Origin: Gemmatimonadota bacterium
GTDB lineage: Bacteria; Gemmatimonadota; Gemmatimonadetes; Palauibacterales; KS3-K002
DNA: 34,775 nt
Assembly: GCA_039589155.1 (NCBI GenBank)
Contig: JBDHHX010000001.1
Coordinates: 1-34,775 of the forward strand
Direction of reading: 5' to 3'
Shown: one piece after another, positions 5,873 through 26,906 of the stretch
Layout: each line of letters opens with the position of its first letter
How positions within the stretch are numbered: the stretch's first letter is position 1
Made by a program: the position numbers and the translations under genes
Notes under the pieces: model-generated
What the model saw: only the letters and a program-made list of their open reading frames with translations
What the model was told of the DNA's origin: nothing
Database searches by the model: none

Positions 5873-8158
5873 CTAGAGCTCGATCAGCACCTGCGTGCCA
5901 ATGGTCGACTCGACCCTAACCATACCATCGACGCTGACCTTGAATCGCTCGCCTTCGATCCCGATGTCGATCTTGTGGCCGCGGAAGGGCAGTCCCGTGA
6001 GCCGCAGCGACTCGAGCTCGAAGGGGAACGGGTCGACGACGAACGCGTCACCGCCGGCGGCCCGGAAGCCGGCGACGTAGCTCACGAGCAGGTCGTTCAC
6101 CCACGAGTGTTGATAGTCATCGAAGCCGCGGTACTGGCAGGGCTGACCTGTATCGGGGTTGTAGTGCTCGTAGCAGTTCGGTCGTGACGGGTCGCCGTCG
6201 TGGAACATCATGCGGACGAATTTGCGAACGAACTCCACGGTGCGCTCGCGCAGGCCCGGGTCGTGCTCGATCGCGCTCCGGGCGATCGCCTCGATCACGT
6301 GCGAGTTCGCCATCGGCCAGACGCGGCCGTTCCACGGGCAGTTGTGGCGCTTGCCCTTCCACTCGGCGTCGGGGCTGTAGTACGGATCGTCGGCGCTGGT
6401 CGAGGGCACCGGGTAGACGGTCCAGAACTCCGACGGGTTGAGCAGGTGTCCCCGCAGACCTTCGACCTGGTCGGGGCCGGCGAGGTCGGTGAAGAAGGGA
6501 TAGAAGCAGACCGCGGCCTTCACGCCGGTGCGCTGCATGGTCCGCGGATCGACATCGGAGAACATGCCCGACTCCGCATCCCACATCAGCCCGCTGATCG
6601 CGGAGCCGGTTCGATCGGCGGCGGCCGTCCACCGTGCGGCATCGGCCTCCGCGCCCGTGCTGGCCGCGATCTCGGCCAGCGCCCGCTGCAGGCGATAGGC
6701 ATAGACCGTGGCGTCCACGCCCTTCAGCCGGATCAGGTTGCCCCACGACTCGCTGTCCGCCTTGGGACTCACCGCCATGTAGCGGCTCATGTACTCCTGG
6801 CCGGTCTCGTAGTGATCGACTACATCGTAGAGCCCGCTGTCTTCTCGATCTCGCTCCCCGTCCAGCCACTCGGCGTAGCGCGTGAGCGGCTCGTACGCAG
6901 CCTTGAGGAAATCGAGATCGGGATGCACACAGTCGACGGCGAGAACGGCGTCGCCCCAGTTCGCGAAATAGAAGTCGGTACGCGCCAGGTGGTTCACGTA
7001 GATGCGTCCGTGCAGCTTCCCGCCTTCCTTCTGGTGCGCCAGGATGTTGAGCAGCGTACCGCGAGCGCGGGCCGGGTCGGAAAGCCAGCGTAGCTCACGA
7101 GCGTGGCACTGCGCGCTGTAGGCGATGGGCACGTGGAAGTAGCCCGTCCCCTCGCAGCAGCCGGGATAAAGATGATTGCCGGCCCCGCCTTCATGACCGC
7201 AGAGTTGAAGACCGTACCAGCGGTAGTACCAATAGCGCTCGAAGAAGACGTCGGAACAGGCGAAGCCCGGGACGCCCTGGAAGTACTCGTTCCAATGTGC
7301 GCGGCTCGCCATACCCGGCTCCGACCCGGGCGTCGGCCGCGCGATCTCCCGGCGGCCCGGCGGCGGCACGTGTTTCTGAATGTGATAGGCAGCGGCTTCC
7401 GTCGCTTGCGAGTCGCCCAGTCCTGTGGGCCGCACTTGCGCTCGCAGGCACAGCGTCGCGTCGCCGCCGGCCGGCACAGTCACCGGCGACGCGACCGCCA
7501 CGTAGAGCACGCCCCGGGGACTTACACCGGCCACCTGCACAGATGTGACCGGGCCGCGTCGCCACTTCTCCGGAAACGGTGTGTGCTCCCAAACCGGGCC
7601 GGCGATGGTGCCCTCCGACAGAAACGCGCTACCAGCCACACCGCCGTCCGGCGCTTCCAAGCTCACCTCCACGTTCAAGCGGTGGACGTGTCGGTCCTGG
7701 AGCATGTGATTGAAGCTCACCGTGCCTGCCGCCGCCTGCACGCTGGAAAGCTCGAGACCCGCGGTGCTTTGTGCGGTCCACGCCACACCCAGCAGCTTGC
7801 GAGCGGAGCCGCCGGCGTTGCGGATCCTCCACTCCGACATGAAATAGCCACCGGGCAACACGGAGCGGTGTTCGTCCGCCGACAGATCGTCATCCAGCGC
7901 GTAGGTCGTGACCAGCTCCGCCGGCGTCCAGCGCCTGCCGGTGGGCCGAGCGGCCAGCGGTTGACCGGGCGGGTCACCGTCCTCGCCCAGCAGCGTGACG
8001 GTGAAGATGGGGGCGAGCTCGTAGTGATAGACGTGCGCTTCGTCCCAGAAGCCGGGCGAATCGAGCCAGCGTGGGTAGCGGGGCGCCCAGATGATGCCGC
8101 CCCCCGAGCCCAGGTAGTACTTGTCGGATCGCTCGAGCAGCCGTAGCGGATCGGTCAT
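5873..8158 (-). CDS. Six-hairpin (alpha/alpha)6 glycoside hydrolase, GH63/GH37/MGH1-like
   Basis: The segment ...DHYETGQEYMS...CFYPFFTDLA...CPWNGRVWPMANSHVIEAI...CYEHYNPDTGQ... resembles trehalase/mannosylglycerate-hydrolase-type catalytic domains. The start MTDPLRLL at 8158 overlaps the upstream stop (ATGA). The remaining 206 codons of the 967-aa track ORF overlap the CBM9-like gene in another frame. Confidence 0.65.
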   Translation of the reverse strand: MTDPLRLLERSDKYYLGSGGGIIWAPRYPRWLDSPGFWDEAHVYHYELAPIFTVTLLGEDGDPPGQPLAARPTGRRWTPAELVTTYALDDDLSADEHRSVLPGGYFMSEWRIRNAGGSARKLLGVAWTAQSTAGLELSSVQAAAGTVSFNHMLQDRHVHRLNVEVSLEAPDGGVAGSAFLSEGTIAGPVWEHTPFPEKWRRGPVTSVQVAGVSPRGVLYVAVASPVTVPAGGDATLCLRAQVRPTGLGDSQATEAAAYHIQKHVPPPGRREIARPTPGSEPGMASRAHWNEYFQGVPGFACSDVFFERYWYYRWYGLQLCGHEGGAGNHLYPGCCEGTGYFHVPIAYSAQCHARELRWLSDPARARGTLLNILAHQKEGGKLHGRIYVNHLARTDFYFANWGDAVLAVDCVHPDLDFLKAAYEPLTRYAEWLDGERDREDSGLYDVVDHYETGQEYMSRYMAVSPKADSESWGNLIRLKGVDATVYAYRLQRALAEIAASTGAEADAARWTAAADRTGSAISGLMWDAESGMFSDVDPRTMQRTGVKAAVCFYPFFTDLAGPDQVEGLRGHLLNPSEFWTVYPVPSTSADDPYYSPDAEWKGKRHNCPWNGRVWPMANSHVIEAIARSAIEHDPGLRERTVEFVRKFVRMMFHDGDPSRPNCYEHYNPDTGQPCQYRGFDDYQHSWVNDLLVSYVAGFRAAGGDAFVVDPFPFELESLRLTGLPFRGHKIDIGIEGERFKVSVDGMVRVESTIGTQVLIEL

Positions 8159-12251: not shown

Positions 12252-13352
12252 ATGCTGGCCACCTGCCAGCCCACGCTTTACCTTGCAAACTCAATGTCCG
12301 TGCACGATTTCCCCAGCCGTTTCCGTCAGGCGGTCGGCGCCGGCACCGCCCTCGTCGAGGCACCCGGTACCGGCGACAGCCTGATGACTTTCGCCCGCTC
12401 GGTCGCTGCGGGCCTCTCCGATGAGCCCAAGTGGCTGCATTGCCGGTTCCTCTACGACGCCGAAGGCAGCCGCTTGTTCGAGGTAATCACCGAACAGCCC
12501 GAGTACTATCCGACACGCACCGAAGCGGCGATCCTGCAGGCGCACGCCGAGGAGATCCGCGATTTGACCGGACCCGTCACCCTGGCCGAGCTGGGCTCGG
12601 GTTACTCAGTCAAGACCGAGTACCTGCTGAACGCCTACTCCAGCCACGACAGGGACGTGCTCTACGTTCCGGTGGACGTCAGCGTCAGCGCGCTGCGCGA
12701 GGCGAACCGCGCCATATCGGACAACTTCCCGGAAGTCCAGTTCACCGGTATCGCCGGCCCCTACCGCAGCGCGTTTCCCGTTCTGCGCCAGCTCTCGCCG
12801 CAGATGGTCGTTTTCCTGGGTAGCACGATCGGCAACTTCAATCCGGCGGAGACGACGGCATTCTTCAGCGCGCTCTCCGGACACTTGCCGGAGCACGACT
12901 TCTTCCTGCTGGGCATCGACCTGGTGAAGGACATCGATGTCCTGGAGGCGGCCTACAATGACGCGGCAGGGATCACCGCCCGCTTCACGACGAACTACTT
13001 CGCGCGGCTAAACCGCGAGCTGGGTTCCGACGTTGACCTGGACAACATCGAGCATGTCGCGCGCTGGAACCCCGAGCTGGAGCGGATGGAGATCTTCACG
13101 CTCTTTCATACGACCCAGCAGGTGTACATCGAGCCGCTCGACATGACCTTCGAGATCGAGGCCGGCGAGCGCGTCCTCATCGAGATCAGCCGCAAGTTCC
13201 GCCTGCCCGACATCACCAGAGAGCTCGGCAAGTACGGGTTCCGCTTGCGTCGATCCTTCACCGACCCAAAGGGTTGGTTCGGACTGCTGTTGTTGGAACG
13301 CGTCGATGACAGGGTGTTGCGGCGCGCGTCCTACCCCGCGACCGACCGCTAG
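12252..13352 (+). CDS. egtD: L-histidine N-alpha-methyltransferase (EgtD family; makes hercynine)
   Basis: Contains FLYDAEGSRLFEVITEQPEYYPTRTEAAIL, ELGSGYSVKT, FLGSTIGNF and AYNDAAGITARFTTN, which are the characteristic EgtD blocks. ATG at 12294 is an alternative start. Confidence 0.85.
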   Translation: MLATCQPTLYLANSMSVHDFPSRFRQAVGAGTALVEAPGTGDSLMTFARSVAAGLSDEPKWLHCRFLYDAEGSRLFEVITEQPEYYPTRTEAAILQAHAEEIRDLTGPVTLAELGSGYSVKTEYLLNAYSSHDRDVLYVPVDVSVSALREANRAISDNFPEVQFTGIAGPYRSAFPVLRQLSPQMVVFLGSTIGNFNPAETTAFFSALSGHLPEHDFFLLGIDLVKDIDVLEAAYNDAAGITARFTTNYFARLNRELGSDVDLDNIEHVARWNPELERMEIFTLFHTTQQVYIEPLDMTFEIEAGERVLIEISRKFRLPDITRELGKYGFRLRRSFTDPKGWFGLLLLERVDDRVLRRASYPATDR

Positions 13353-13355
13353 GCG

Positions 13356-16300
13356 ATGCACGAAGTGACCCTGAGCGGTCGCGCCGCGGCCGAAGCCAAT
13401 ACGCTCATCGAAAGAGACGGACTCTGCGGGATCTGCCCGGCAGGTTGCTGGGTGACCGTCGCATTGGAGGACGGCTCGATCAAGAGCGTACGCCCCCAGG
13501 ACGACCCGATGGGGATGATCTGCACCAACGGCGTCCACTCGGCGGAGATCGTCCACGACCCGGACCGGCTGCGCTATCCGATGCGCCGCAGCGGACCGAA
13601 GGGCACACACGAGTTCGAGCGTATCAGCTGGGACGAGGCGTTCGATATCATCGTCGAAAAGCTGCAGGGCTTGAAAGAGGAGCACGGGCCGGAGTCGACG
13701 GCGATATACACCGGCCGCGGCAGCTTCGAGCTGGCGCTCTGCGACGTCTTCCAACCGGACGGCGTCGCCATCTCGTCCGCTTCATCCGTTCTCTTTCCGT
13801 TCGGCTCGCCGAACACACTGGGCGTCGGCGCGCTCTGCTACGTCTCCTTCGCCATGATCGCGCCGCACTCGACGCTCGGTGAGTACTACCACACGATGGA
13901 CCACGACATCGAGAACGCCGAGCTCATCGTGGTCTGGGGCGCCAACCCGGCGACCGACTCGCCGCCGCTCGCACACGAGCAGATCAAGCGCGCCGTGCTG
14001 AGGGGAGCCGAGGTCATCTGTATCGACCCGCAGCGAAACCACACGGCCCGCGAGGTCGGCGCCGAGTGGATACCCGTCCGCCCCGGGACCGATGGCGCAC
14101 TGGCCCTCGGCATGATCAACGTGCTGATCGAGGAAGAGCTGTACGACGAAGCGTTCGTCAAAGACTGGACGCTTGGGTTCGACGAGCTGGCCCAGTACGT
14201 CCAGCACTTCCGGCCGGAGGTCGTCGAGGACATCACCGGCGTGCCGGCCGAAACGGTGGTCAACCTGGCACGTCGTCTCGCCCGCGCGCGCGGCGCCTGC
14301 CCCGTCATGTATACCGGGCTCGAGTACTCGGACAGCGGCGTACAGGCAATCCGCGCCGTCTTTACGCTTTGGGCGCTGGCGGGTCAGCTCGACGTGCCCG
14401 GCGGCCTCAACATCCGCATGCGGGAAAACCAGTTTCCGATCAACCGGTCCGGCCTGGTCGCGAACCCGAATCCGAAGAAGGCCCTGGGCCGCGATCGATT
14501 CCCGGTCTACAGCCTGTACCGGGGCGAATCGCACGCCATAGCGCTCCCCGACTCCGTGCTCAAAGGCGAGCCGTACAAGGTCCGTGGGCTCATCATCCTC
14601 GGTGGTTCCATCATTACCGCCTGGCCAAACCCATCGGTTTGGCGCGAAACGCTGGGCGCCCTCGATTTCATGGTCAGCATCAACCGGCATCACACCGCCG
14701 ACTCGGCCTACGCCGACATCGTGTTGCCGGCGACCACCATGTACGAGATCACCTCGTACATGACCTACGGCCCGATCTTCAAGATCAGGGAGAAGATGCT
14801 GGAGCCGGTGGGTGAAGCGCGCAACGATTTCCTCATCCTGGCGGAACTGGCCAGTCGCCTCGGCTACGGCCACCTCTATCCACAGACCGAGGAGGCGCTG
14901 CTGCGCCGCGTCCTCCACGGCTCAGGCTTCACACTCGAGGACGTGATCACCGCCGGCGGCGCGGTTCAAGTTCCCACCGTGATGACGCAGTACAAGAAGT
15001 GGGAGAAGGGCGGCCTGCGCGAAGACGGGGAGCCCGGGTTCAGCACTCCGTCAGGGAAGTTCGAGATCGCTTCCAGCATCCTGGAAGAACACGGCTACGA
15101 TGCGCTCCCCGTTTACACCGAGCCCGGCGAGGGTCCGCTGGCGCAACCGGCGCTGGCCGAGAGTTACCCGCTGGTCTTCAACTCGGGCGCCCGCATCTTC
15201 GCCGACTTTAGATCCCAGCACCACGGCGTTGTCGGACTCAATCGCAAAGCGCGCGTACCGCTGGTGACGATGAACACGAGCGATGCCGCACAACGCGGAA
15301 TAGAAGACGGCGATTGGGCTTGGGTCGCTACGCCACGCGGCCGGGTGAAGTACCGTGCGCGCGTGACCGATGACATTGCCGCCGGCGCCATAGACGCCAA
15401 CATGGGCGGCGGCGGTCCGCTGGGCCCGCAAGAGTGGCAAGACTGCAACGTGAACGACCTGACCGATCTGAACCGTTACGACCCGATCTCCGGCTTCCCG
15501 GTCTACAAGGCGCTGCTCTGCGATGTGGTGAAGGCGGAGGACTCGAACGGCGCAGGTCGCCGGACCGAAGAAGAAAGCGAAGCCGTGATCCGGGCGAGCG
15601 AGATCGAAAAGCCAATGCGCTACGTCTACCTGGATCACAACGCGACCACGCCGGTGGACCCCGAAGTGCTGGATGCTATTATGCCGCACTTGCAGGCCGC
15701 TTACGGCAACCCGTCAAGCATCCACAGCCGCGGAAGCGAGGCGCGCGATGCGGTAGAGTCGGCGCGCCGCACGGTCGCCCAGGCTCTGGGCTGCACGGCA
15801 CGCCGAGTCATCTTCACCGGCGGCGGCTCGGAGTCCGACAACCTGGCCATCAAGGGCGTGGCGCTGGCCAGGCGCTACCAGGGCAACCATATCATCACCA
15901 CCACGGTCGAGCACCCGGCGGTGCTGAGAACCTGCGAGGCGCTGCAGGAGTTCGGCTTCGAGATCACTTACCTGGATGTCGATGAGACCGGCTGCGTCGA
16001 TTCACAGGCATTGAAGGACGCGATGCGCCCGCAGACGACACTGGTCAGCGTGATGATGGCAAACAGCGAGGTGGGGAGCATCAATCCCATCGCCGAGCTG
16101 GCGGGCATCGCACGCGAGGGCGGCGCCCTGTTCCATACCGATGCAGTCCAGGGGCTGGGCAAACTGCCCATCGACGTGGACGAGCTGGGCGTCGACCTGT
16201 TGTCGGTCTCCAGCCACAAGCTCTACGGACCGAAGGGTGTCGGTGCTCTCTACGCGCGCAAAGGCATCAAGCTCCACCCCGTGATCCACGGCGGCGGCCA

Positions 16301-16781
16301 GGAGCGGAAGCTGCGGGCCGGCACCGAGAACGTCCCCGGTATCGTCGGTTTCGGGAAAGCCTGCGAGCTGGCCGTGCGGCGACTCAACCACAACGAGATG
16401 GACCGCGTGCTCCAGCTACGCGACCGCTTGGAGGCGGGAATAAGGGAGATCGTTCCCGAGGCCCGACTCAACGGCCACCCCGAGCATCGGCTCCCCAACA
16501 CGCTCAACATGACGCTGCCCGGCATGCGCGGCGAGTCGCTGGTCCTGTTCATGGACCGCCGCGGCGTCTACTTCTCTTCCGGCTCCGCCTGCAAGTCGGG
16601 GAATCCCGACCCGTCCCACGTGCTAACAGCGATGGGGCTCTCGGACGATGATGCCCACTGCGCTATCCGGCTCACGCTGGGCGTGGGAACCACAGAAGAA
16701 GACGTGGACTACGTGCTGGAAAGCCTGCGACAGATCATCGGCGACCGCGGTAGCAGCGTCCGTTTCGTAGCCTGCCGCTAG
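13356..16781 (+). CDS. Fusion of a molybdopterin/tungstopterin oxidoreductase (acetylene-hydratase-like MopB) with a NifS-type cysteine desulfurase: metallopterin-dependent ergothioneine synthase (MES)-like
   Basis: N-terminal Fe-S motif C24-G-I-C27-P-A-G-C31...C56, followed by MopB-like blocks over aa ~1-745. From M754 onward the sequence is a class-V aminotransferase: YLDHNATTPVDPEV..., PLP lysine SSHK955LYGPKG, and catalytic SSGSAC1079KSG. It starts 3 nt after the egtD stop. Confidence 0.8.
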   Translation: MHEVTLSGRAAAEANTLIERDGLCGICPAGCWVTVALEDGSIKSVRPQDDPMGMICTNGVHSAEIVHDPDRLRYPMRRSGPKGTHEFERISWDEAFDIIVEKLQGLKEEHGPESTAIYTGRGSFELALCDVFQPDGVAISSASSVLFPFGSPNTLGVGALCYVSFAMIAPHSTLGEYYHTMDHDIENAELIVVWGANPATDSPPLAHEQIKRAVLRGAEVICIDPQRNHTAREVGAEWIPVRPGTDGALALGMINVLIEEELYDEAFVKDWTLGFDELAQYVQHFRPEVVEDITGVPAETVVNLARRLARARGACPVMYTGLEYSDSGVQAIRAVFTLWALAGQLDVPGGLNIRMRENQFPINRSGLVANPNPKKALGRDRFPVYSLYRGESHAIALPDSVLKGEPYKVRGLIILGGSIITAWPNPSVWRETLGALDFMVSINRHHTADSAYADIVLPATTMYEITSYMTYGPIFKIREKMLEPVGEARNDFLILAELASRLGYGHLYPQTEEALLRRVLHGSGFTLEDVITAGGAVQVPTVMTQYKKWEKGGLREDGEPGFSTPSGKFEIASSILEEHGYDALPVYTEPGEGPLAQPALAESYPLVFNSGARIFADFRSQHHGVVGLNRKARVPLVTMNTSDAAQRGIEDGDWAWVATPRGRVKYRARVTDDIAAGAIDANMGGGGPLGPQEWQDCNVNDLTDLNRYDPISGFPVYKALLCDVVKAEDSNGAGRRTEEESEAVIRASEIEKPMRYVYLDHNATTPVDPEVLDAIMPHLQAAYGNPSSIHSRGSEARDAVESARRTVAQALGCTARRVIFTGGGSESDNLAIKGVALARRYQGNHIITTTVEHPAVLRTCEALQEFGFEITYLDVDETGCVDSQALKDAMRPQTTLVSVMMANSEVGSINPIAELAGIAREGGALFHTDAVQGLGKLPIDVDELGVDLLSVSSHKLYGPKGVGALYARKGIKLHPVIHGGGQERKLRAGTENVPGIVGFGKACELAVRRLNHNEMDRVLQLRDRLEAGIREIVPEARLNGHPEHRLPNTLNMTLPGMRGESLVLFMDRRGVYFSSGSACKSGNPDPSHVLTAMGLSDDDAHCAIRLTLGVGTTEEDVDYVLESLRQIIGDRGSSVRFVACR

Positions 16782-20060: not shown

Positions 20061-21317
20061 CTAACGGCTGGCGGCCGCCTCGAACCGGGCGATCAGAGCG
20101 GCGACCGCGGCGTCGGCTCCCTTGAACGCGTCGTCACCACCGGCGTTCACGGCGGCGAAAAGTCCGAGACCGCGCTCCGGCGCCAGCCACACCGACGCCC
20201 ACCACATCGTGTTGCTGCCATGGTGGTTGAGGACCCGGCCGCCGGCCCAACCGCGTGCCCCCACGCCCCAGCCCATGGCGTAGACCGATCCGGCGGGTGG
20301 TGTATGAAGCACCTGAAAGCTCGCAGCGCTCACGAGTCCGTCGACGCCGGCGGCGCCCGCCAGCTGTTCGATCATGTACCTCGCGTAGTCGGCGCCACTG
20401 CAGTGAACGGTGCCCGCCGGCCCCAACACAAGCGGATTGTCGGCGTAGGGGCCGGGCTCCACCGGCCGCCACGACCCGGCCTTACCGAGATGACCCCAAG
20501 GCTCGTCGCGGCTCGAATCGCCCGGGGCTCCGAAGCCGCACGAGCCCATCCCCAACGGCACGAACATCTCGACCGCCAGCAGCTCCTCCCAACCCAGCCC
20601 GGTCACCCGCTCCAACATCGCTCCGGCCACGATGTAGCCCGCGTTGCTGTACTGGAACTCCCCGCGCTCTCCCTCGGACGACATGCCGAGCAACTCGACG
20701 GCAAAACGATAGCGTTGAACGGTCATCGCCGCCGTGTCGGCACGCAGTGAGGCCCACGATGGGGCCCGCAGAACGTCGACCGGCAGAGCGGCCGTATGGT
20801 AGAGCAACTCTTCGAGGCGAACGTCCTCGTACTCCTCGTTCATGGTGCCCACCAGCTCGGGAAACACAGCGCCGATCGTCGTGTCCCAAGACAAGTCACC
20901 CCGCTCGACCAGCACCGCTGCCAGCGTCGCCGTCATCGCCTTGGTCAACGATCCCACGTGCCAGACATCATCTGCTGTTACCAGCTCGTCAAACCCGACG
21001 GCGCGCCGACCGGTCGCGGCCATCTCGACGATCTCACCATCGTGCACCAGTACCGCTACCAGTGCCGGTAGCTGATTGTCCGAGCGTATGGACTCAATGA
21101 CCTGCTGCAGGTTGACATCCCCGGCCACCCCGTAATCCTGAGCATGCCCGCTCTCACTCGCGACGAGCAACGCAACGACCGCCAGCGCCAACAATCCCCC
21201 GGTTCCCCGATACCCCGAATGCCAAAGTCCCCGAATCGCCTTCGACAATTCAATCAATCCAACCTCCCCAACTCCGATTATCAATTCCGGACCTCCCCAA
21301 CTCCCAACCCGGAACAC
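20061..21317 (-). CDS. Serine hydrolase / class C beta-lactamase-family protein
   Basis: Contains the SxxK motif (HVGSLTKAM) and YxN (YSNAGY). Position 21317 is a GTG start. A TTG at 21257, preceded by GGGGAGG with 5-nt spacing, gives a cleaner signal peptide (IELSKAIRGLWHSGYRGTGGLLALAVVALLVASESGHA), so the true start is probably 21257. Confidence 0.8.
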   Translation of the reverse strand: MFRVGSWGGPELIIGVGEVGLIELSKAIRGLWHSGYRGTGGLLALAVVALLVASESGHAQDYGVAGDVNLQQVIESIRSDNQLPALVAVLVHDGEIVEMAATGRRAVGFDELVTADDVWHVGSLTKAMTATLAAVLVERGDLSWDTTIGAVFPELVGTMNEEYEDVRLEELLYHTAALPVDVLRAPSWASLRADTAAMTVQRYRFAVELLGMSSEGERGEFQYSNAGYIVAGAMLERVTGLGWEELLAVEMFVPLGMGSCGFGAPGDSSRDEPWGHLGKAGSWRPVEPGPYADNPLVLGPAGTVHCSGADYARYMIEQLAGAAGVDGLVSAASFQVLHTPPAGSVYAMGWGVGARGWAGGRVLNHHGSNTMWWASVWLAPERGLGLFAAVNAGGDDAFKGADAAVAALIARFEAAASR

Positions 21318-21468
21318 TCATCCCAGGTCCGTGTAGGATAGTTGTCCCTGCCTCCCACGCTCCCCCGCATGTCACTCTAACCTTCGCAATAGCAACCACC
21401 TAGCCCCCGTCCCTGTCCCAGCGCGAGACCCCGACCATCAATTCCATGTATCGTTCGAGGAGGGAGTC

Positions 21469-21807
21469 ATGGATCTCGAGGTACTCAAACTCGCCGGCCT
21501 CATGATGGCAATCTGGATCCCCTGCTTCTGGGTCGCCATGAAGATCACACGCATCGGCGGCAACATGTTGGCGGCGTTGACGGTCAGCATCCCTTCCTTC
21601 GCCGTCGCCTATGCTGGCGGCTACTTCGGTGGGATATTCGTCGGGATCGGCGCGAGCACGATCGTGCTCTACGTCTTGACCTGCAAGCTATTGAAGGCGC
21701 CGGTCTTCCCCGATGCGTTTCTCACCGTCGTGGTGACGAACGTGCTATACCTGCTGGTCTGGTCGCAGCTCCTGATGGGCGCGGCCAAGAACGCAGCGGC
21801 GCAGTAG
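21469..21807 (+). CDS. Small hypothetical membrane protein (3 predicted TM helices)
   Basis: Strong SD GGAGGGAG before the ATG. The 112-aa protein is hydrophobic and matches no motif I recognise. Confidence 0.55.
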   Translation: MDLEVLKLAGLMMAIWIPCFWVAMKITRIGGNMLAALTVSIPSFAVAYAGGYFGGIFVGIGASTIVLYVLTCKLLKAPVFPDAFLTVVVTNVLYLLVWSQLLMGAAKNAAAQ

Positions 21808-21825
21808 CCGGCTAGCGGCAGGCGG

Positions 21826-23085
21826 CTATTGCCGTCTGAAGATCAACGTCGCGTTGATCCCGCCGAACCCGAAAGAATTGGACATCGCGAAGCCGACACC
21901 GGCCGCGCGACCTCCGCCTGACACGTAGTCGAGATCGCACTCGGGATCCGGCTCGGACAAGTTCAGCGTCGGCGGCATCCAGCCACGCTCGATGGTGAGC
22001 GCGGTGATCGCCGCCTCGATCGCACCGGAAGCGCCGAGCGGATGGCCGTAGTATCCCTTCGTGCCGCTGACCGGCACGCGATAAGCACGCTCTCCCAACA
22101 CAGCTTTGATAGCCTTCGTTTCCACTGGATCGTTGAGCCGTGTGGATGAGGCGTGCGCGTTCACATACTCCACTTCATCGGGCACGGCCGCCGCGTCGGC
22201 GAGCGCGATCTCTATGGCCCGGGCCGACTGTACGCCATCAGGCCGGGGCGCCGTCATATGGTAGCCGTCGTTGGTCGTGCCGTACCCACACAGCTCGGCA
22301 TAGATGCGCGCATCACGCTTCACCGCGCGACCCCATTCTTCCAGTACCAGTATCGCCGCGCCTTCACCCATGACGAAGCCATCGCGCTCGCGATCGAACG
22401 GCCGGCTCGCGGTGGCCGGATCATCGTTGCGCTTCGACATGGCGCGGATCAACGCGAACGCTCCGTAGGACAGCGGCGACAGCGGGCACTCGACGCCGCC
22501 CGCCAGGGCGACGTCGGCGCCGCCGTCACGAATCATCTGGAAGCCGTTGCCGATGCCCATCGCTCCCGACGCACAGCTCATCCCGTTGGTTGAGTTGGGA
22601 CCGGTGAACCCGAACTCGATCGCGATGTTGCAGCTCGTCGCACCACCAAATACGGCCAGGGCGAGCAGCGGGTTGACGGCCGCGGGGCCTTGCTCGAGGA
22701 AAACGTTGTGCTGGCTTTCGGCATAGGCGACGCCGCCCAGCGCCGAGCCCATCTGCACGGCGACGCGGTCGGACTCGAGTGACGCCGGGTCGAGGGCGGC
22801 GTCGCTCAGCGCCATGCGCGCCGTGGCCACGCTGAAGTGGCCGAAGCGATCGAGGCGCTTCGCTCGCTTGCCGTCCATGTGATCGATAGGGTCGAAGCCG
22901 TCGACCTCGGCCGCCATGCGACTGCGGAAATGGTTCACATCGAAGCGGGTGACCTCGCGGACCATCGAGCGCTCGCGTCGCAGACCGTCCCAAAGCCCCT
23001 CTGCGCCGCTGCCGATTGGCGTGATGCAGCCGATTCCGGTGACGGCGACGCGACGGCGGCCGTTGTGCTCCCTGTCATTGCTCAC
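21826..23085 (-). CDS. Beta-ketoacyl synthase (KAS I/II, FabF-like), stand-alone
   Basis: From the GTG at 23085 the protein begins VSNDREHNGRRRVAVTGIGCITPIG... The Cys-His-His triad contexts are GMSCASGAMGIG, VNAHASST and GYYGHPLGASG. The start overlaps the upstream stop (GTGA). Confidence 0.85.
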   Translation of the reverse strand: MSNDREHNGRRRVAVTGIGCITPIGSGAEGLWDGLRRERSMVREVTRFDVNHFRSRMAAEVDGFDPIDHMDGKRAKRLDRFGHFSVATARMALSDAALDPASLESDRVAVQMGSALGGVAYAESQHNVFLEQGPAAVNPLLALAVFGGATSCNIAIEFGFTGPNSTNGMSCASGAMGIGNGFQMIRDGGADVALAGGVECPLSPLSYGAFALIRAMSKRNDDPATASRPFDRERDGFVMGEGAAILVLEEWGRAVKRDARIYAELCGYGTTNDGYHMTAPRPDGVQSARAIEIALADAAAVPDEVEYVNAHASSTRLNDPVETKAIKAVLGERAYRVPVSGTKGYYGHPLGASGAIEAAITALTIERGWMPPTLNLSEPDPECDLDYVSGGGRAAGVGFAMSNSFGFGGINATLIFRRQ

Positions 23086-23543
23086 AAGAGCTCTACCTCT
23101 TTCTTGACTCCAGCCAGCGTCATGCCGGCGACATGATGGATGAAGGTCGGGCCGATGACCGCGTTTGCCGCGAACCTGCCGATGAGCGGCCAGCGCGGAC
23201 CGCGCGGCCAGTCGTGAATTATCTCGACTCGCGTGGCATCGCCCTCCCGGTGGAACCGCCACTCCACGTCCATCCCCTTCATGATTCCCGCCACGTGCCG
23301 GTATCGCACCACCGGCACGCTTTCGTCCGCCCACATCTCGCTGGCCCACCAGACCGGGTAGCCGACCGGACCGAACATTCGCCGGGCCGCCATCTCCACC
23401 AGCCCGCGGCCGAATCCGTCGCGCCGCTGGAACTGCACATAGCGGTAGTGCTCCAGTATCTCGGGCCAACGCTCCACGTCGGCGGCGACCTGAAAACAGC
23501 GCGCCGGAGACGAATCGATCGCGATCTCGTTGTGCGTGATCAT
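23082..23543 (-). CDS. SRPBCC-superfamily protein (polyketide cyclase/dehydrase / START-Coq10-like fold)
   Basis: MITHNEIAIDSSPARCFQVAADVERWPEILEHYRYV... is a typical SRPBCC N-terminal block, and the length is ~153 aa. It has an ATGA overlap with the upstream gene and a GTGA overlap with the downstream gene. Confidence 0.7.
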   Translation of the reverse strand: MITHNEIAIDSSPARCFQVAADVERWPEILEHYRYVQFQRRDGFGRGLVEMAARRMFGPVGYPVWWASEMWADESVPVVRYRHVAGIMKGMDVEWRFHREGDATRVEIIHDWPRGPRWPLIGRFAANAVIGPTFIHHVAGMTLAGVKKEVELL

Positions 23544-24778
23544 CGGTCGTACCTGTCTGACGCCAGGGCAGGCAGTAACCGCAACCAGAGTCGCGGATCC
23601 AACAGCGTGGCCGGGTGCGCCAGATCGCCTGCCGCGCGCAGCAGCCGGGCCGCGGCGTCTTCGCGACGCCCCAGGCCGCCCACGAATCGGGACATGAGGG
23701 CCGGCCGGCATATCGCCGCCTCGATGGCCCGCTGCAGAGTTCGAGTGGGGGCCAACGCTCGGCCAAGCTCGCGGCCGTACCGTTTGAAGCCGATCACCTC
23801 ACTGCAACGTTCGTCGAAGAGCGCGCCGATGGCTGACGCGGCCATCCTCGCGCTACGGATCGCCTGGTAGATCCCCTGGCCCGTGAACGGGTCGTAGTAG
23901 CCGGCTGCGTCACCGACCAACACGGCACCCGGCCCCCAGGCCCGCTGAACCGGCCGGTCGAACGGGCCCGTCACCATCACGCCCTGCTCCAGGCCCGCGG
24001 AAGATACCCGCGCCTTAACGGCTGGAAAATCATCCAGCGCGGTCGCCAGGAAAGCCGCCGCATCTCCTCCCAGGTCGCGTGCTTCCTCGCCGGGTATCAC
24101 CAGCGTTACGTTGGCGCCGCCCGTGAACGGAGCGTATCCGCACGTTCGCCTCCCCCGGACTTGCAGCTCGCCGTATTCGCCCGTCCCATTCGCCGATTTC
24201 AGGTGACCGACGATCGCGATCTTCCGCAGAATCGGGGGCCGCGCGCCAAGACCTAGACGACTCTGTACCACCGAACGAAGTCCGTCGGCGCCCACGATAA
24301 CCCGGGCGCGGAGCACGCGTACTTCCGTACCCTGGCGGATGACCACGCCGGCGGCCCGACCGTTCTCGAAAACCAGATCGAAGACCCGAGCGCCGAAGCT
24401 GGCACGGGCGCCGGCATCCAACGCCGCATCCAGCAAGGCTGCATCGAACTCGCTGCGCCTCACCGACCAACCCTCATCGCCGCCGCCGAACTCGGCCCTG
24501 AACCATCGACCGTCCGCCGCTTCGATTCGCCAGCCGCGCAGCGCCATCGGCGTCAGGCGCTCGCGCAGTTGCCCCGCGAGGCCAAGCGCCTCCAATTCCT
24601 TCACCGCACCAGGGTTCACGCAGTCGCCGCACGGCTTGTCACGCGGGAAAACCGCGCGCTCCAGCACGAGAACGTCCCGGCCCTGGCGAGCCAACTCCAG
24701 CGCCGCAGTCGCGCCAGCGGGCCCGCCGCCCACAACGATGACCTCGACGTCCCGTTCCCTCCTCACGGTCGCTTCCAT
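23540..24778 (-). CDS. FAD-dependent oxidoreductase, geranylgeranyl-reductase / UbiH-like flavoprotein family
   Basis: From the ATG at 24778 the protein begins MEATVRRERDVEVIVVGGGPAGATAALELARQGRDVLVLE (GxGxxG dinucleotide fold). It also has CGDCVNP and a GDAAGYYDPFTGQGI motif. Confidence 0.8.
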   Translation of the reverse strand: MEATVRRERDVEVIVVGGGPAGATAALELARQGRDVLVLERAVFPRDKPCGDCVNPGAVKELEALGLAGQLRERLTPMALRGWRIEAADGRWFRAEFGGGDEGWSVRRSEFDAALLDAALDAGARASFGARVFDLVFENGRAAGVVIRQGTEVRVLRARVIVGADGLRSVVQSRLGLGARPPILRKIAIVGHLKSANGTGEYGELQVRGRRTCGYAPFTGGANVTLVIPGEEARDLGGDAAAFLATALDDFPAVKARVSSAGLEQGVMVTGPFDRPVQRAWGPGAVLVGDAAGYYDPFTGQGIYQAIRSARMAASAIGALFDERCSEVIGFKRYGRELGRALAPTRTLQRAIEAAICRPALMSRFVGGLGRREDAAARLLRAAGDLAHPATLLDPRLWLRLLPALASDRYDR

Positions 24779-25491
24779 CGCAATCCCCAGCGAAACAGCG
24801 GTTGAGGCTCCACCACCGCATCCAGTCCGACACGCTCGGCCAGACCCCGCGCCTCCTTCAGCGTGAACGCGGCACGCAACGACGCCGGGGCATCGTGCCG
24901 CGTGTAGCGATGCCGGCCCCATACGGTGAGGGCAAGGCACAGCGACGCCAGGTACCCGGCGGTTCCACGACGCAGATCACTCACCACAACTCCCAGTTCG
25001 CTCACCCTGGACATCTCTCGCAACGCCTCAACCGCGTCTTCTGTTTCCAGGTGGTGCAGAAACGTGCTGCAAATCGCCACGTCGAAGGCTCGCTCTCCGA
25101 AGGGCAGCGACCTGGCGTCACCCCGGACAAGTCGAACCCGCGCGCCACGGTCACCCCCTTCCAGTCGCCGCTTCGCTATGCGGATCGTCTCCCGGCCTAG
25201 CTCGAGTCCCACGCCCTCCAACTCCACATCGCGACCCTCGCTCCAGCGTCCCAACGCCGCCAGCATGTCGCCGCCCCCGCAGCCCACGTCCAGGATCCGC
25301 AGCCGGCTGGGTATGACGCCGCCCAACAACCGCTCCACCTGATGGATCACCGTCGCCGTCGCTCCCAGCGAGCGGTTGTACCAGGCGAGATCGTTCAGAC
25401 TCTCGGCCAGCCGATCGGGGTCCGGTGAACCCTGATCCATCAGTTCGCGCACCAGCTGTCTTTGCATTGGACCCCAACGATGCCGCCACAC
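24763..25491 (-). CDS. Class I SAM-dependent methyltransferase
   Basis: Motif I is RILDVGCGGGDMLAAL. Position 25491 is a GTG start preceded by GAAGG, and the ATG at 25467 is an alternative. There is a 16-nt overlap with the downstream FAD enzyme gene. Confidence 0.8.
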   Translation of the reverse strand: MWRHRWGPMQRQLVRELMDQGSPDPDRLAESLNDLAWYNRSLGATATVIHQVERLLGGVIPSRLRILDVGCGGGDMLAALGRWSEGRDVELEGVGLELGRETIRIAKRRLEGGDRGARVRLVRGDARSLPFGERAFDVAICSTFLHHLETEDAVEALREMSRVSELGVVVSDLRRGTAGYLASLCLALTVWGRHRYTRHDAPASLRAAFTLKEARGLAERVGLDAVVEPQPLFRWGLRWKRP

Positions 25492-25594
25492 CAGCCTTCT
25501 GGCTAGAGCCCGGCAAATCGGCCGTACGGCCGACCCTTTATCCCGAGAACGATTCTTACTTGCATTCAGCCCGCGCTTTGGTTAGATTTCTTTT

Positions 25595-25658
25595 TTAGCC
25601 CAGGCTAAATACGGCAGCTTGCTGGTTTAGATAGACGCGATTAGCCCCGATTAGCCCC
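25595..25658. promoter_or_regulatory. Cluster of four TTAGCC/GGCTAA half-sites in the intergenic region upstream of the methyltransferase-KS cluster
   Basis: An inverted repeat TTAGCC-CA-GGCTAA sits at 25595..25608. A perfect tandem GATTAGCCCC x2 sits at 25639..25658. Confidence 0.35.
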
Positions 25659-25913
25659 ATTTGTCACCCGCCGCTGTTGGAGCGAGCCGATCAGGCCCTG
25701 CTCCACGGCGGCGTTCTCATTGGCGGACCTCCTCATCGCCATCACGGGCTTCTCGCGACCTCTAAACTGCGCCATCGCCACAGAAAGGTCTTGACGAAGG
25801 GGCGGGCTAGGCACCATCATTGGCGCACCTTGCCGAGCCGGTGACCTACCCCGGATCCCCGAATTTTTCCCCGACAGACTTACAGGTGCATCCAGCCCTC
25901 AGAGGGAGCCGGC

Positions 25914-26906
25914 ATGTTCTCAAACACGGGTCCTGAAGGCGAGTTTCCAGTTCGCCTGGATCTGGTACCGGGAAAGCTCAGCGCGCAGGTCTATCTGCAC
26001 GACGTGAAGTCCGTGCGTCGCAAGATTCCGTGCTGGACCTATGTGACGGACGGCTTGCGTGAGCGGGGTCAGAAGGAAGTAGTGATCACGCTGAGCAGGG
26101 AAGAAGATGAGAACGCTTCCGACTTTCCTCGAGCGCCGCTCAAGTTCTTTTCGCACCTGTACGAGTTCTCCGAGGGCGGTGAATCGGTGGACGTGGGTGA
26201 CGTCACGCAGTTCGAGGGGGACGGCTTCATGGGTCGGGCGGGGATCGTCTACGCCGAGCCGGAATCGCTGTACGGCCTGGAGTTGCCCTCATTCTCATTG
26301 GCGGCGGTTCTGCTGACAGAGGACGAGCTGCAGGCGGTTCACGCGTTCGGCGCGACACGAGTTCTAGCCCTACTCGGCAAGGCAGCCCGGCACTATCCGT
26401 ATCCGGCATGGTCGGATCGATCGCGGCCCGGACTCGAGCTCACGGCGACTTTGGAGCAGAGCGTCCTGGCACAGATCGACCGCAGGCGGATTCCCGGTTT
26501 GAGGGTGCGGGTCGAGGGCAACCGAATCGTTGCCTCGGTGGCGCCGGAAGCCGTCGAGGACCTGCAGACCGTGCTCTCACGAGCGACGGTCAATGTTCCC
26601 CTTGCTCTGCCCACGGACCTGGACCCGGTGGCGGACGGTTGCCTGGTTTGGGAACCGGGCCATCTGGAACCGACCGTTGCCGCGCCACCGGGCAGCCGGC
26701 GGACGCGTTTGAGCGGCTGCTTCCTGGCGCTGGTACCCGATCAAGAAGAGGACTGCAGCGAGATCGTCGAGGACGGAATGGTGGTATCGTTCACCGACAG
26801 CTCGTGGCTGGCGGTTAAGGGCGCCCTGGAAACGCAGGCGCCGATCACGATCCCCTCGACCAGCGGATCGCTGCACTTCACGCTCAGCTGGCGGCAACTG
26901 CTCTAG
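25914..26906 (+). CDS. Hypothetical protein with an N-terminal SUFU-like (suppressor-of-fused family) domain impression
   Basis: SD GAGGGAG precedes the ATG. The segments ...KIPCWTYVTDGLRERGQKEVVITL...LTEDELQAVHAFGATRVLALLGKAARHYPYPAWSDRSRP resemble bacterial SUFU-family proteins. The C-terminal ~150 aa is unassigned. Confidence 0.4.
   Translation: MFSNTGPEGEFPVRLDLVPGKLSAQVYLHDVKSVRRKIPCWTYVTDGLRERGQKEVVITLSREEDENASDFPRAPLKFFSHLYEFSEGGESVDVGDVTQFEGDGFMGRAGIVYAEPESLYGLELPSFSLAAVLLTEDELQAVHAFGATRVLALLGKAARHYPYPAWSDRSRPGLELTATLEQSVLAQIDRRRIPGLRVRVEGNRIVASVAPEAVEDLQTVLSRATVNVPLALPTDLDPVADGCLVWEPGHLEPTVAAPPGSRRTRLSGCFLALVPDQEEDCSEIVEDGMVVSFTDSSWLAVKGALETQAPITIPSTSGSLHFTLSWRQLL

Follow-up and report, generated by a model that had tools for sequence, protein, structure and literature searches.

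Operon structure and conservation

We analyzed a block of four co-directional genes on the minus strand of a 34,775-nucleotide (nt) stretch of a Gemmatimonadota genome (contig JBDHHX010000001.1 of assembly GCA_039589155.1), and we refer to this whole stretch as the window. Read straight from the sequence, the genes code for a methyltransferase (MT) dependent on S-adenosylmethionine (SAM), an oxidoreductase dependent on flavin adenine dinucleotide (FAD), a small SRPBCC-fold protein, and a FabF-like beta-ketoacyl synthase (KS) (Table 1), and an independent gene call based on GC content at third codon positions (GC3) returned the identical four genes. An original prediction, made from the letters of the window, had described the block as translationally coupled, and the overlaps can indeed be read directly: 16 nt between the MT and FAD genes (from the ATG at 24778 to the TGA at 24763), 4 nt between the FAD and SRPBCC genes (ATGA, 23543-23540), and 4 nt between the SRPBCC and KS genes (GTGA, 23085-23082). 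The domain assignments of the four proteins hold as well. As had also been claimed, the 34.8-kb window contains no acyl carrier protein (ACP), ketoreductase, dehydratase, acyltransferase, or type III polyketide synthase (PKS), and no Chal_sti_synt homolog was found in it.

Table 1. Coordinates of the operon, its immediate flanks, and the flavin reductase genes embedded in related operons.
Feature	Sequence	Position	Strand	Remarks
SAM-dependent methyltransferase (MT)	Window	25467..24763	-	234 amino acids (aa) from ATG; alternative start GTG at 25491
FAD-dependent oxidoreductase (FAD)	Window	24778..23540	-	412 aa
SRPBCC-fold protein	Window	23543..23082	-	153 aa
FabF-like beta-ketoacyl synthase (KS)	Window	23085..21826	-	419 aa; Cys171 codon at 22575-22573
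5' intergenic region, common to the operon and the divergent 330-aa gene	Window	25468-25913		446 nt, 59.6% GC; presumed operon promoter region
Predicted membrane protein, convergent to KS	Window	21469-21807	+	112 aa; 60.5% GC; no Pfam family
SARA_C-like protein, divergent from the MT gene	Window	25914-26906		330 aa
Embedded flavin reductase	L073	948-1388		Five-gene variant FAD-flavin reductase-MT-SRPBCC-KS
Embedded flavin reductase	L125	696-1163		Five-gene variant, as in L073
Embedded flavin reductase	L157	1849-2343		Five-gene variant, as in L073

Relatives of the SRPBCC protein were collected in two scans, and their loci are cited below by their labels (L073, P0376, and so on). A scan of genomes, with one genome per species, returned 369 relatives, and the best 80 were taken as loci. 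These best 80 of the 369 are nearly all labeled Gemmatimonadota, the exceptions being one metagenome-assembled genome (MAG) labeled Acidimicrobiia and three "uncultured bacterium" records. A scan of metagenomes, seeded from distant SRPBCC members (34 to 58% identical to the protein of the window or of L084), gave 80 loci of 62 to 77% GC; its search pattern was derived from a narrower alignment, as a first broad alignment was too divergent. Counting only loci with enough flanking sequence, the KS gene lies directly downstream of the SRPBCC gene in 68 of 69 Gemmatimonadota genome loci and in 47 of 51 metagenome loci (48 with L139, where the genes overlap), and the 4-nt overlap between the two recurs in about 30 related loci. 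The spacers of 100 to 390 nt between the SRPBCC and KS genes of the Longimicrobium loci contain no small conserved open reading frame (ORF). The MT-FAD pair is found directly upstream of SRPBCC-KS in 29 of 63 Gemmatimonadota loci and 32 of 37 metagenome loci. The remaining 34 Gemmatimonadota loci, including those of Longimicrobium and Gemmatimonas, have SRPBCC-KS without MT-FAD, with a peptidase M42 gene upstream and a sigma-70 gene downstream.

The order of the genes is retained even between lineages that share no more than 31 to 60% protein identity. In a second lineage, which has diverged deeply (L084, L087, and L088; about 60% GC, with L087 on a 3.96-Mb contig), a gene for a HemL-like aminotransferase is followed by MT-FAD-SRPBCC-KS, with identities to the window proteins of 37, 34, 36, and 59%, respectively, KS being the most conserved of the four. 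Variants of the block include L089, with MT-SRPBCC-KS and no FAD gene, and apparent fusions of MT with SRPBCC (P0376 and P0427) and of FAD with SRPBCC (P0483 and P0480). Together, the genes make up a genuine conserved unit, beyond chance; across the wider family the four-gene order is the predominant arrangement, with SRPBCC-KS as the invariant core. The recurrence of the block among relatives, which the original prediction had left to be checked, is therefore upheld for the gene order but not for the block as an indivisible set, since about half of the Gemmatimonadota loci lack MT-FAD and the core consists only of SRPBCC-KS.

No candidate for a dedicated carrier protein appeared at these loci, about 170 in all. 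Searches by tblastn found no ACP in the window or in 83 loci with the Escherichia coli and Bacillus subtilis proteins as queries (E ≤ 1), nor in the 80 metagenome loci with the E. coli query alone (E ≤ 1e-6), and the ACP Pfam domain was not present among the called genes of the loci examined. Likewise, in about 170 related loci there was no type III PKS within 5 to 10 kb (tblastn with the L086 enzyme as query, and with both the L086 and L091 enzymes for 160 of them) and no adjacent acpP or fab gene. Each locus has one KS gene, and no second KS was found in any of them.

Some other genes recur next to the block in part of the family. A sigma-70 factor of about 286 aa follows KS in the same direction in 36 Gemmatimonadota loci (L022-L081 and others; e.g., L054 8278-9138), and the SRPBCC-KS pair may be cotranscribed or coregulated with it. 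Six close relatives (L001-L004, L010, and L016, in the last at 3387-4055 on the minus strand) code, divergently and upstream of MT, for a membrane methyltransferase of the ICMT family (NF040696, 82 bits), a family whose members occur alongside type III PKSs in Bacillus (BpsB). Among the 80 metagenome loci, an FtsX-type ABC exporter (an ATPase and an 860-aa permease) adjoins the block in about 9 (L116 5080-7662; L135 5176-6042), and an 80-aa 4Fe-4S ferredoxin is encoded upstream of the operon in 4 (e.g., L105 2888-3130). A DUF92 membrane protein precedes the block in L157 and L168, an MIP channel follows KS in five loci, and in the second lineage KS is followed by a conserved ORF of 70 to 73 aa (L084 11806-12027; L087 10049-10261) that has no Pfam match and is not ACP-like.

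The four encoded proteins

The KS contains the N- and C-terminal ketoacyl-synt domains of Pfam at full length, and it passes the cutoff of the fabF equivalog model TIGR03150 by a very small margin (499.3 bits, with a cutoff of 493.75), the L084 ortholog scoring 497.5 bits. Its nearest solved structures are true FabFs, those of Synechocystis (1e5m, 412 bits) and Thermus (1j3n, 397 bits), with the actinorhodin KS trailing at 304 bits. The Cys-His-His triad had been called intact, and Cys171, His311, and His348 are in fact invariant across 69 members of the KS family, together with Lys343 and Phe407; most of the ACP-contact residues are also kept (Arg77 and Arg214). Despite this, the identity of the KS to five canonical FabFs from four phyla is 39 to 48%, in contrast to the 50 to 60% that canonical FabFs show among themselves across phyla (71% for two Firmicutes), and by this comparison the protein is an outlier among FabFs, less like the canonical ones than those are like each other. 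At positions conserved in FabF, the family has the invariant changes I108L, V134A, P135L, N140G, A162S, and T305S and the nearly invariant changes F133L (59 of 69 members), I138F, M141A/S, and T161M (all in E. coli numbering). A162S adjoins the catalytic cysteine, so that Met-Ser replaces Thr-Ala before the active site. Residues 108 and 132 to 141 are presumably those that line the acyl pocket of FabF at the dimer interface, and the KS would be a divergent KS II in which the acyl-pocket/dimer-interface segment (132-141) has been remodeled. There is a real chance that it is still an ordinary FabF.

The KS gene is absent at L032, a Longimicrobiaceae MAG (6001-7590), where the sigma-factor gene comes immediately after the SRPBCC gene in a sequence free of Ns. 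The KS of L089 (6453-7928) carries a low-complexity charged insertion of about 70 aa just ahead of the C-terminal NSFGFGG motif.

The SRPBCC protein is matched weakly by the Pfam family Polyketide_cyc (PF03364, 26.2 bits, with a cutoff of 23.4), and the NCBIfam scan gave no match to it. Its sole sequence relatives among solved structures are aromatase/cyclases of type II PKSs, the single sequence matching TcmN (E = 8e-5) and the family profile matching WhiE ORFVI (E = 1.5e-7). A confident AlphaFold model (predicted local distance difference test score [pLDDT] of 89.8) led to proteins of this kind, with TTHA0849, ZhuI, TcmN, and WhiE ORFVI as the best Foldseek matches (TMq of 0.71 to 0.86), in line with the TcmN-like option named in the original prediction. 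The family is narrow, with 679 clusters at 50% identity (E ≤ 1e-3) among 1.84 billion representatives. In an alignment of 104 diverse members, with a median of 40% identity to the window protein, W26, P27, H32, Y33, R34, M51, R55, W66, H83, M91, W95, and H110 are each conserved in at least 89%. Y33, W66, M91, and W95 align with Tyr35, Trp65, Met91, and Trp95 of the cyclases, and Y33, the equivalent of the catalytic Tyr35, is kept in 101 of the 104 members. The position of the cyclase Gln110 is taken by the nearly invariant His110, and that of the catalytic Arg69 by Met70 in the window clade (alignment of 15 sequences), being variable in the wider family. Judged by its sequence and predicted model, the protein thus appears to resemble an aromatase/cyclase in its fold and in some of the catalytic residues, with a chemistry that cannot be identical. 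The automatic JGI annotation labels it RatA/COQ10; its genomic context is the KS gene rather than smpB/ratB or ubiquinone genes. We consider it a candidate cyclase, or otherwise a candidate carrier of a lipid substrate.

The MT belongs to the Pfam families Methyltransf_25/11 and matches the NCBIfam model PRK06202 over its full length with 133.5 bits, below the cutoff of 243 (132 bits for the L084 protein), the UbiE/MenG models reaching at most 39 bits. We class it as a divergent PRK06202 protein; the same family holds the methyltransferases encoded in MT-FAD-type III PKS operons. Members of the MT family are not always cluster bound, as the homolog in L085 stands alone, with no partner genes.

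The FAD enzyme (Pfam FAD_binding_3) had been compared with UbiH, and this part of the original prediction needs correction, as it is not an enzyme of the UbiH type. Its best model is that of the geranylgeranyl reductase superfamily (TIGR02032, GG-red-SF), with 150 bits and just below the cutoff of 158.8, followed by MenJ (116.8 bits, with a cutoff of 700) and QhpG (104 bits), and among solved structures the enzyme comes nearest to the halogenases 3e1t and 8zop and to the geranylgeranyl reductase 3oz2 of an archaeon. It contains a K-x-C-G motif, which we take to be typical of geranylgeranyl reductases. A flavin reductase gene (PF01613, 144 to 156 bits) is inserted between the FAD and MT genes in three loci, with 4-nt overlaps (Table 1), and lies two genes upstream in several Gemmatimonadota loci. 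The FAD enzyme is a flavoprotein of the geranylgeranyl reductase/halogenase-like group and probably works as a two-component flavin monooxygenase; a monooxygenase dependent on reduced flavin is preferred over a reductase because some operons embed the flavin reductase. Two further readings were considered and rejected, that of a halogenase, suggested by the top solved relatives, as no WxWxIP motif was seen on reading the sequence, and that of a MenJ/UbiE type of quinone tailoring, as the scores of both enzymes are far under the respective cutoffs.

Comparison with known systems and surroundings of the block

More distant relatives of the MT are found in MT-FAD-type III PKS operons (L086 and L091), which gives substance to the link with type III PKS phenolic-lipid operons drawn in the original prediction. 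The window MT is 35 to 37% identical to the methyltransferases of these two operons, and the window FAD enzyme is 33% (L086) and 26% (L091) identical to their FAD enzymes. The MT of L086 scores 222.9 bits against PRK06202, also under its cutoff, and its FAD enzyme 134 bits against GG-red-SF. In a neighbor-joining tree, the MTs of L086 and L091 pair together, apart from those linked to SRPBCC/KS, with a mean distance of 0.79 between the two kinds and 0.73 among the SRPBCC/KS-linked groups. This homology was established with metagenomic loci, and the likeness to HidA and HidB is one of operon position. The order MT-oxidoreductase-type III PKS is that of the cyanobacterial hidABC operon, which produces hierridins, and of a planctomycetal operon present in 58 strains, whose type III PKS makes alkylresorcinols, and HidA methylates an alkylresorcinol (PMC10896814; PMC6836626). 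Streptomyces and mycobacteria produce alkylquinones from three-gene operons of equivalent function (PMC9927152). The block shares with the hidABC type and the planctomycetal mtr-fdo-t3pks operon a SAM methyltransferase followed by an FAD oxidoreductase in the first two positions and a compact, translationally coupled arrangement lacking an ACP, and it shares with the type III PKS operon of L086 the NCBIfam families of both enzymes (PRK06202 and GG-red-SF). The difference lies in the position that follows, where hidABC, SrsABC, and PkqABC have a type III PKS and the block has the SRPBCC protein and the FabF-like KS, a core that also exists alone as a phylum-wide pair. Behind a homologous tailoring pair, SRPBCC and KS together occupy the position of the scaffold-forming type III PKS, and, because it lacks that enzyme, the block falls outside the hid/srs/pkq family. 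Our literature searches (SRPBCC/ketosynthase/FabF; type III PKS/geranylgeranyl reductase operon; Gemmatimonad fabF and alkylresorcinol, by title and abstract) found no description of the block.

The core itself is reminiscent of type II PKSs, in which a KS I/II-type enzyme with a Cys-His-His triad also adjoins a small SRPBCC protein, and whose cyclases TcmN, WhiE ORFVI, and ZhuI are the nearest to the SRPBCC protein in sequence and fold. TcmN is even a methyltransferase-cyclase fusion, according to the molecule name of its structure entry, which can be compared with the apparent MT-SRPBCC fusions noted above. However, the block has no chain length factor (KS-beta) and no dedicated ACP, its KS is nearer to FabF than to the actinorhodin KS, and the catalytic arginine of the cyclases is lost in the window clade, and for these reasons it is not a type II PKS. 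Compared with FabF, the KS has a full-length match, all the catalytic residues, and FabFs as its best solved relatives, but it differs in the remodeled segment, in the residues before the active-site cysteine, and in being never beside acpP or fab genes and almost always beside an SRPBCC gene.

A third point of comparison is DarAB/BrtCD, in which a ketosynthase and a small partner make a resorcinol from ACP thioesters of the fatty acid synthase (FAS) pathway, some of the clusters having no ACP of their own (PMC6836626). This logic is analogous to the route proposed below, and the likeness that we draw is one of logic. DarB represents a distinct class of ketosynthases, FabH-like and not KS II, and nothing known to us indicates that DarA is of the SRPBCC type. 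With a KS of a different class, the block is not a DarAB system. By analogy, then, it resembles the hid/srs/pkq operons, the type II PKSs, and DarAB in logic.

Regarding the surroundings of the block, the lower GC content described for both flanks was confirmed on the 5' side, where the intergenic region is well below the 67% of the cluster, but not on the 3' side, where the low GC corresponds to the 112-aa gene; the stretch between this gene and the KS stop codon is only 18 nt long and has 83% GC. The 112-aa membrane-protein gene is kept at the same place in L001, L012, and L016, with 54 to 63% identity. An Rfam search over positions 21300 to 26000 gave no match at E ≤ 1, and the promoter and terminator scans gave nothing above shuffled controls, the sole promoter-like match being one weak site on the plus strand of the 5' intergenic region. 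This region also contains a tandem direct repeat, GGGGCTAATCGGGGCTAATCG, at about 25635-25655 of the window (minus-strand reading). The other genes of the window are unrelated to the block and code for glycoside hydrolases, a galactokinase, an ergothioneine-type module, a MetH-like protein, a beta-lactamase-fold protein, PFK, and an extracytoplasmic function (ECF) sigma factor. The ergothioneine-type module (12252-16781, plus strand) consists of an EgtD-like histidine methyltransferase (PF10017, 334 bits) followed directly by a 1,141-aa fusion of molybdopterin-oxidoreductase and class V aminotransferase/cysteine-desulfurase domains, a pair that we assume to resemble the metallopterin-dependent ergothioneine synthase pathway of Caldithrix.

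Possible pathway and significance

We propose tentatively, giving it slightly less than an even chance, that the block as a whole is a single operon directing the synthesis of a tailored lipid of the polyketide type, most likely resorcinolic or phenolic and possibly quinone forming. In such a pathway, the KS would take a fatty acyl chain from the fatty acid ACP pool of the cell and condense it with malonyl-ACP, bypassing the usual reduction cycle, and the SRPBCC protein would hold the reactive beta-keto chain and fold or aromatize it, so that the two together would do the job of the type III PKS in operons of the hidABC/srs/pkq type. The HidA-like MT could then methylate the ring, and the HidB-like flavoenzyme could hydroxylate it with reduced flavin from a separate reductase, giving a hierridin-like or polyketide quinone-like lipid, while the lineages with only SRPBCC-KS, such as Longimicrobium and Gemmatimonas, would make an untailored product. 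We infer here the substrate, the number of condensations, the formation of a ring, and the order of tailoring. The translational coupling of the four genes is in favor of this proposal, and so are the variants and apparent fusions that connect the SRPBCC protein with MT and FAD. Also in its favor are the conserved gene order, the MT and FAD homologs that precede a type III PKS, the embedded flavin reductase with the ferredoxin and exporter genes nearby, the cyclase-like SRPBCC protein, the divergence of the KS and its absence at L032, and the precedent of DarAB/Brt, where resorcinols arise from FAS-derived ACP thioesters and no dedicated ACP is needed (PMC6836626).

Several points weigh against it. 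To our knowledge, there is no direct precedent for a poly-beta-keto chain being made by a FabF-like homodimer on its own, and the loci provide neither a chain length factor nor a dedicated ACP. The KS passes the FabF equivalog cutoff, with housekeeping FabFs as its closest solved relatives, and the SRPBCC protein of the window clade has a methionine in place of the catalytic Arg69. The neighborhood of SRPBCC-KS is conserved and of a housekeeping type (peptidase M42 upstream, sigma factor downstream), which, together with the absence of MT-FAD in 34 of 63 Gemmatimonadota loci, looks like a core function and not like a sporadic biosynthetic cluster. For some of the apparent fusions, a frameshift or read-through artifact of the metagenome gene calls is possible, because overlaps between these genes are common among the genomes. 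In the type III PKS operons themselves, the ring hydroxylation by HidB is assumed and unproven (PMC10896814).

Part of these observations would also fit a rival explanation, in which the KS is a housekeeping FabF or a plain elongating paralog, the SRPBCC protein is a lipid or quinone binder of the Coq10/RatA type, as its JGI name implies, and the MT and FAD enzymes tailor a menaquinone- or isoprenoid-like substrate in the manner of MenJ and MenG, all of them being colocated through membrane lipids and with no new scaffold involved. The equivalog score, the retention of all the catalytic and most of the ACP-contact residues, the higher conservation of the KS (59% where the other three proteins have 34 to 37%), and the phylum-wide presence of the pair in a conserved housekeeping-like neighborhood all agree with it, as do the matches of the FAD enzyme to the GG-red-SF and MenJ models, its K-x-C-G motif, and the lost cyclase arginine. 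We nevertheless consider it somewhat unlikely. A housekeeping FabF would not be expected to be this far from the canonical ones, to carry invariant substitutions in the pocket and beside the catalytic cysteine, to lack adjacent acpP or fab genes in about 170 loci, or to be cleanly missing, as in L032. The tailoring enzymes do not point to quinones either, as the MT scores far better on PRK06202 than on UbiE/MenG and the FAD enzyme stays far under the MenJ cutoff, and the nearest MT-FAD contexts outside the cluster are type III PKS operons and not quinone genes. Finally, a narrow SRPBCC family with nearly invariant His, Arg, and Tyr residues is unlike a generic lipid binder.

The KS could also perform one or a few specialized condensations, with the SRPBCC protein as a partner acting as dehydratase, isomerase, decarboxylase, or in a thioesterase-like manner, and the resulting nonaromatic lipid would then be methylated and oxidized or reduced. 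Candidate chemistries include a DarB-like head-to-head coupling, the release of a beta-ketoacyl chain as a methyl ketone or pyrone, and a special unsaturated or branched acyl chain. A single KS with no chain length factor or dedicated ACP fits few condensations, the loss of the arginine together with the nearly invariant His32, Arg34, Arg55, His83, and His110 suggests a chemistry unlike the TcmN-type aldol cyclization, and flavoenzymes similar to geranylgeranyl reductases can reduce C=C bonds; the action of a ketosynthase and a partner on FAS intermediates has a precedent in DarAB (PMC6836626). We regard this option as rather improbable, since the relatives of MT-FAD accompany type III PKSs that form alkylresorcinols, which argues for an aromatic substrate, and the embedded flavin reductase points to a monooxygenase and not to a reductase. 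Its precedent is weakened by the class of DarB, which is FabH-like and not a KS II.

Returning to the resorcinolic or phenolic lipid, a broader version of this proposal appears possible to us, although we hold it with less confidence than the operon-level reading. A FabF-derived homodimeric KS and a TcmN-like SRPBCC cyclase, both using the fatty acid ACP of the cell, would constitute an unrecognized fourth route to resorcinolic and quinone lipids, beside the type III PKS, DarAB, and type II PKS routes. This route would be core to Gemmatimonadota and widespread in high-GC soil bacteria, and it would have been exchanged with type III PKSs in front of a HidA/HidB-like pair.

In Azotobacter, Streptomyces, and mycobacteria, phenolic and quinone lipids have been associated with dormancy, a hardened envelope, and alternative respiration. 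If the proposal is true, such lipids could be made by a minimal pair of KS and cyclase that is now annotated automatically as "FabF" and "RatA/SRPBCC," and what looks like an interchange of type III PKS and SRPBCC-KS in front of homologous tailoring genes would be a clear case of nonorthologous replacement. Should the KS be a housekeeping FabF, the finding would shrink to an unexplained, strongly conserved partner protein of FabF. As judged from sequence, the block is a widespread and strongly conserved orphan operon that suggests an undescribed route to lipids of the alkylresorcinol type, and, being conserved across a poorly studied soil phylum and many environmental lineages, its product could be an abundant, unrecognized membrane lipid or biomarker.

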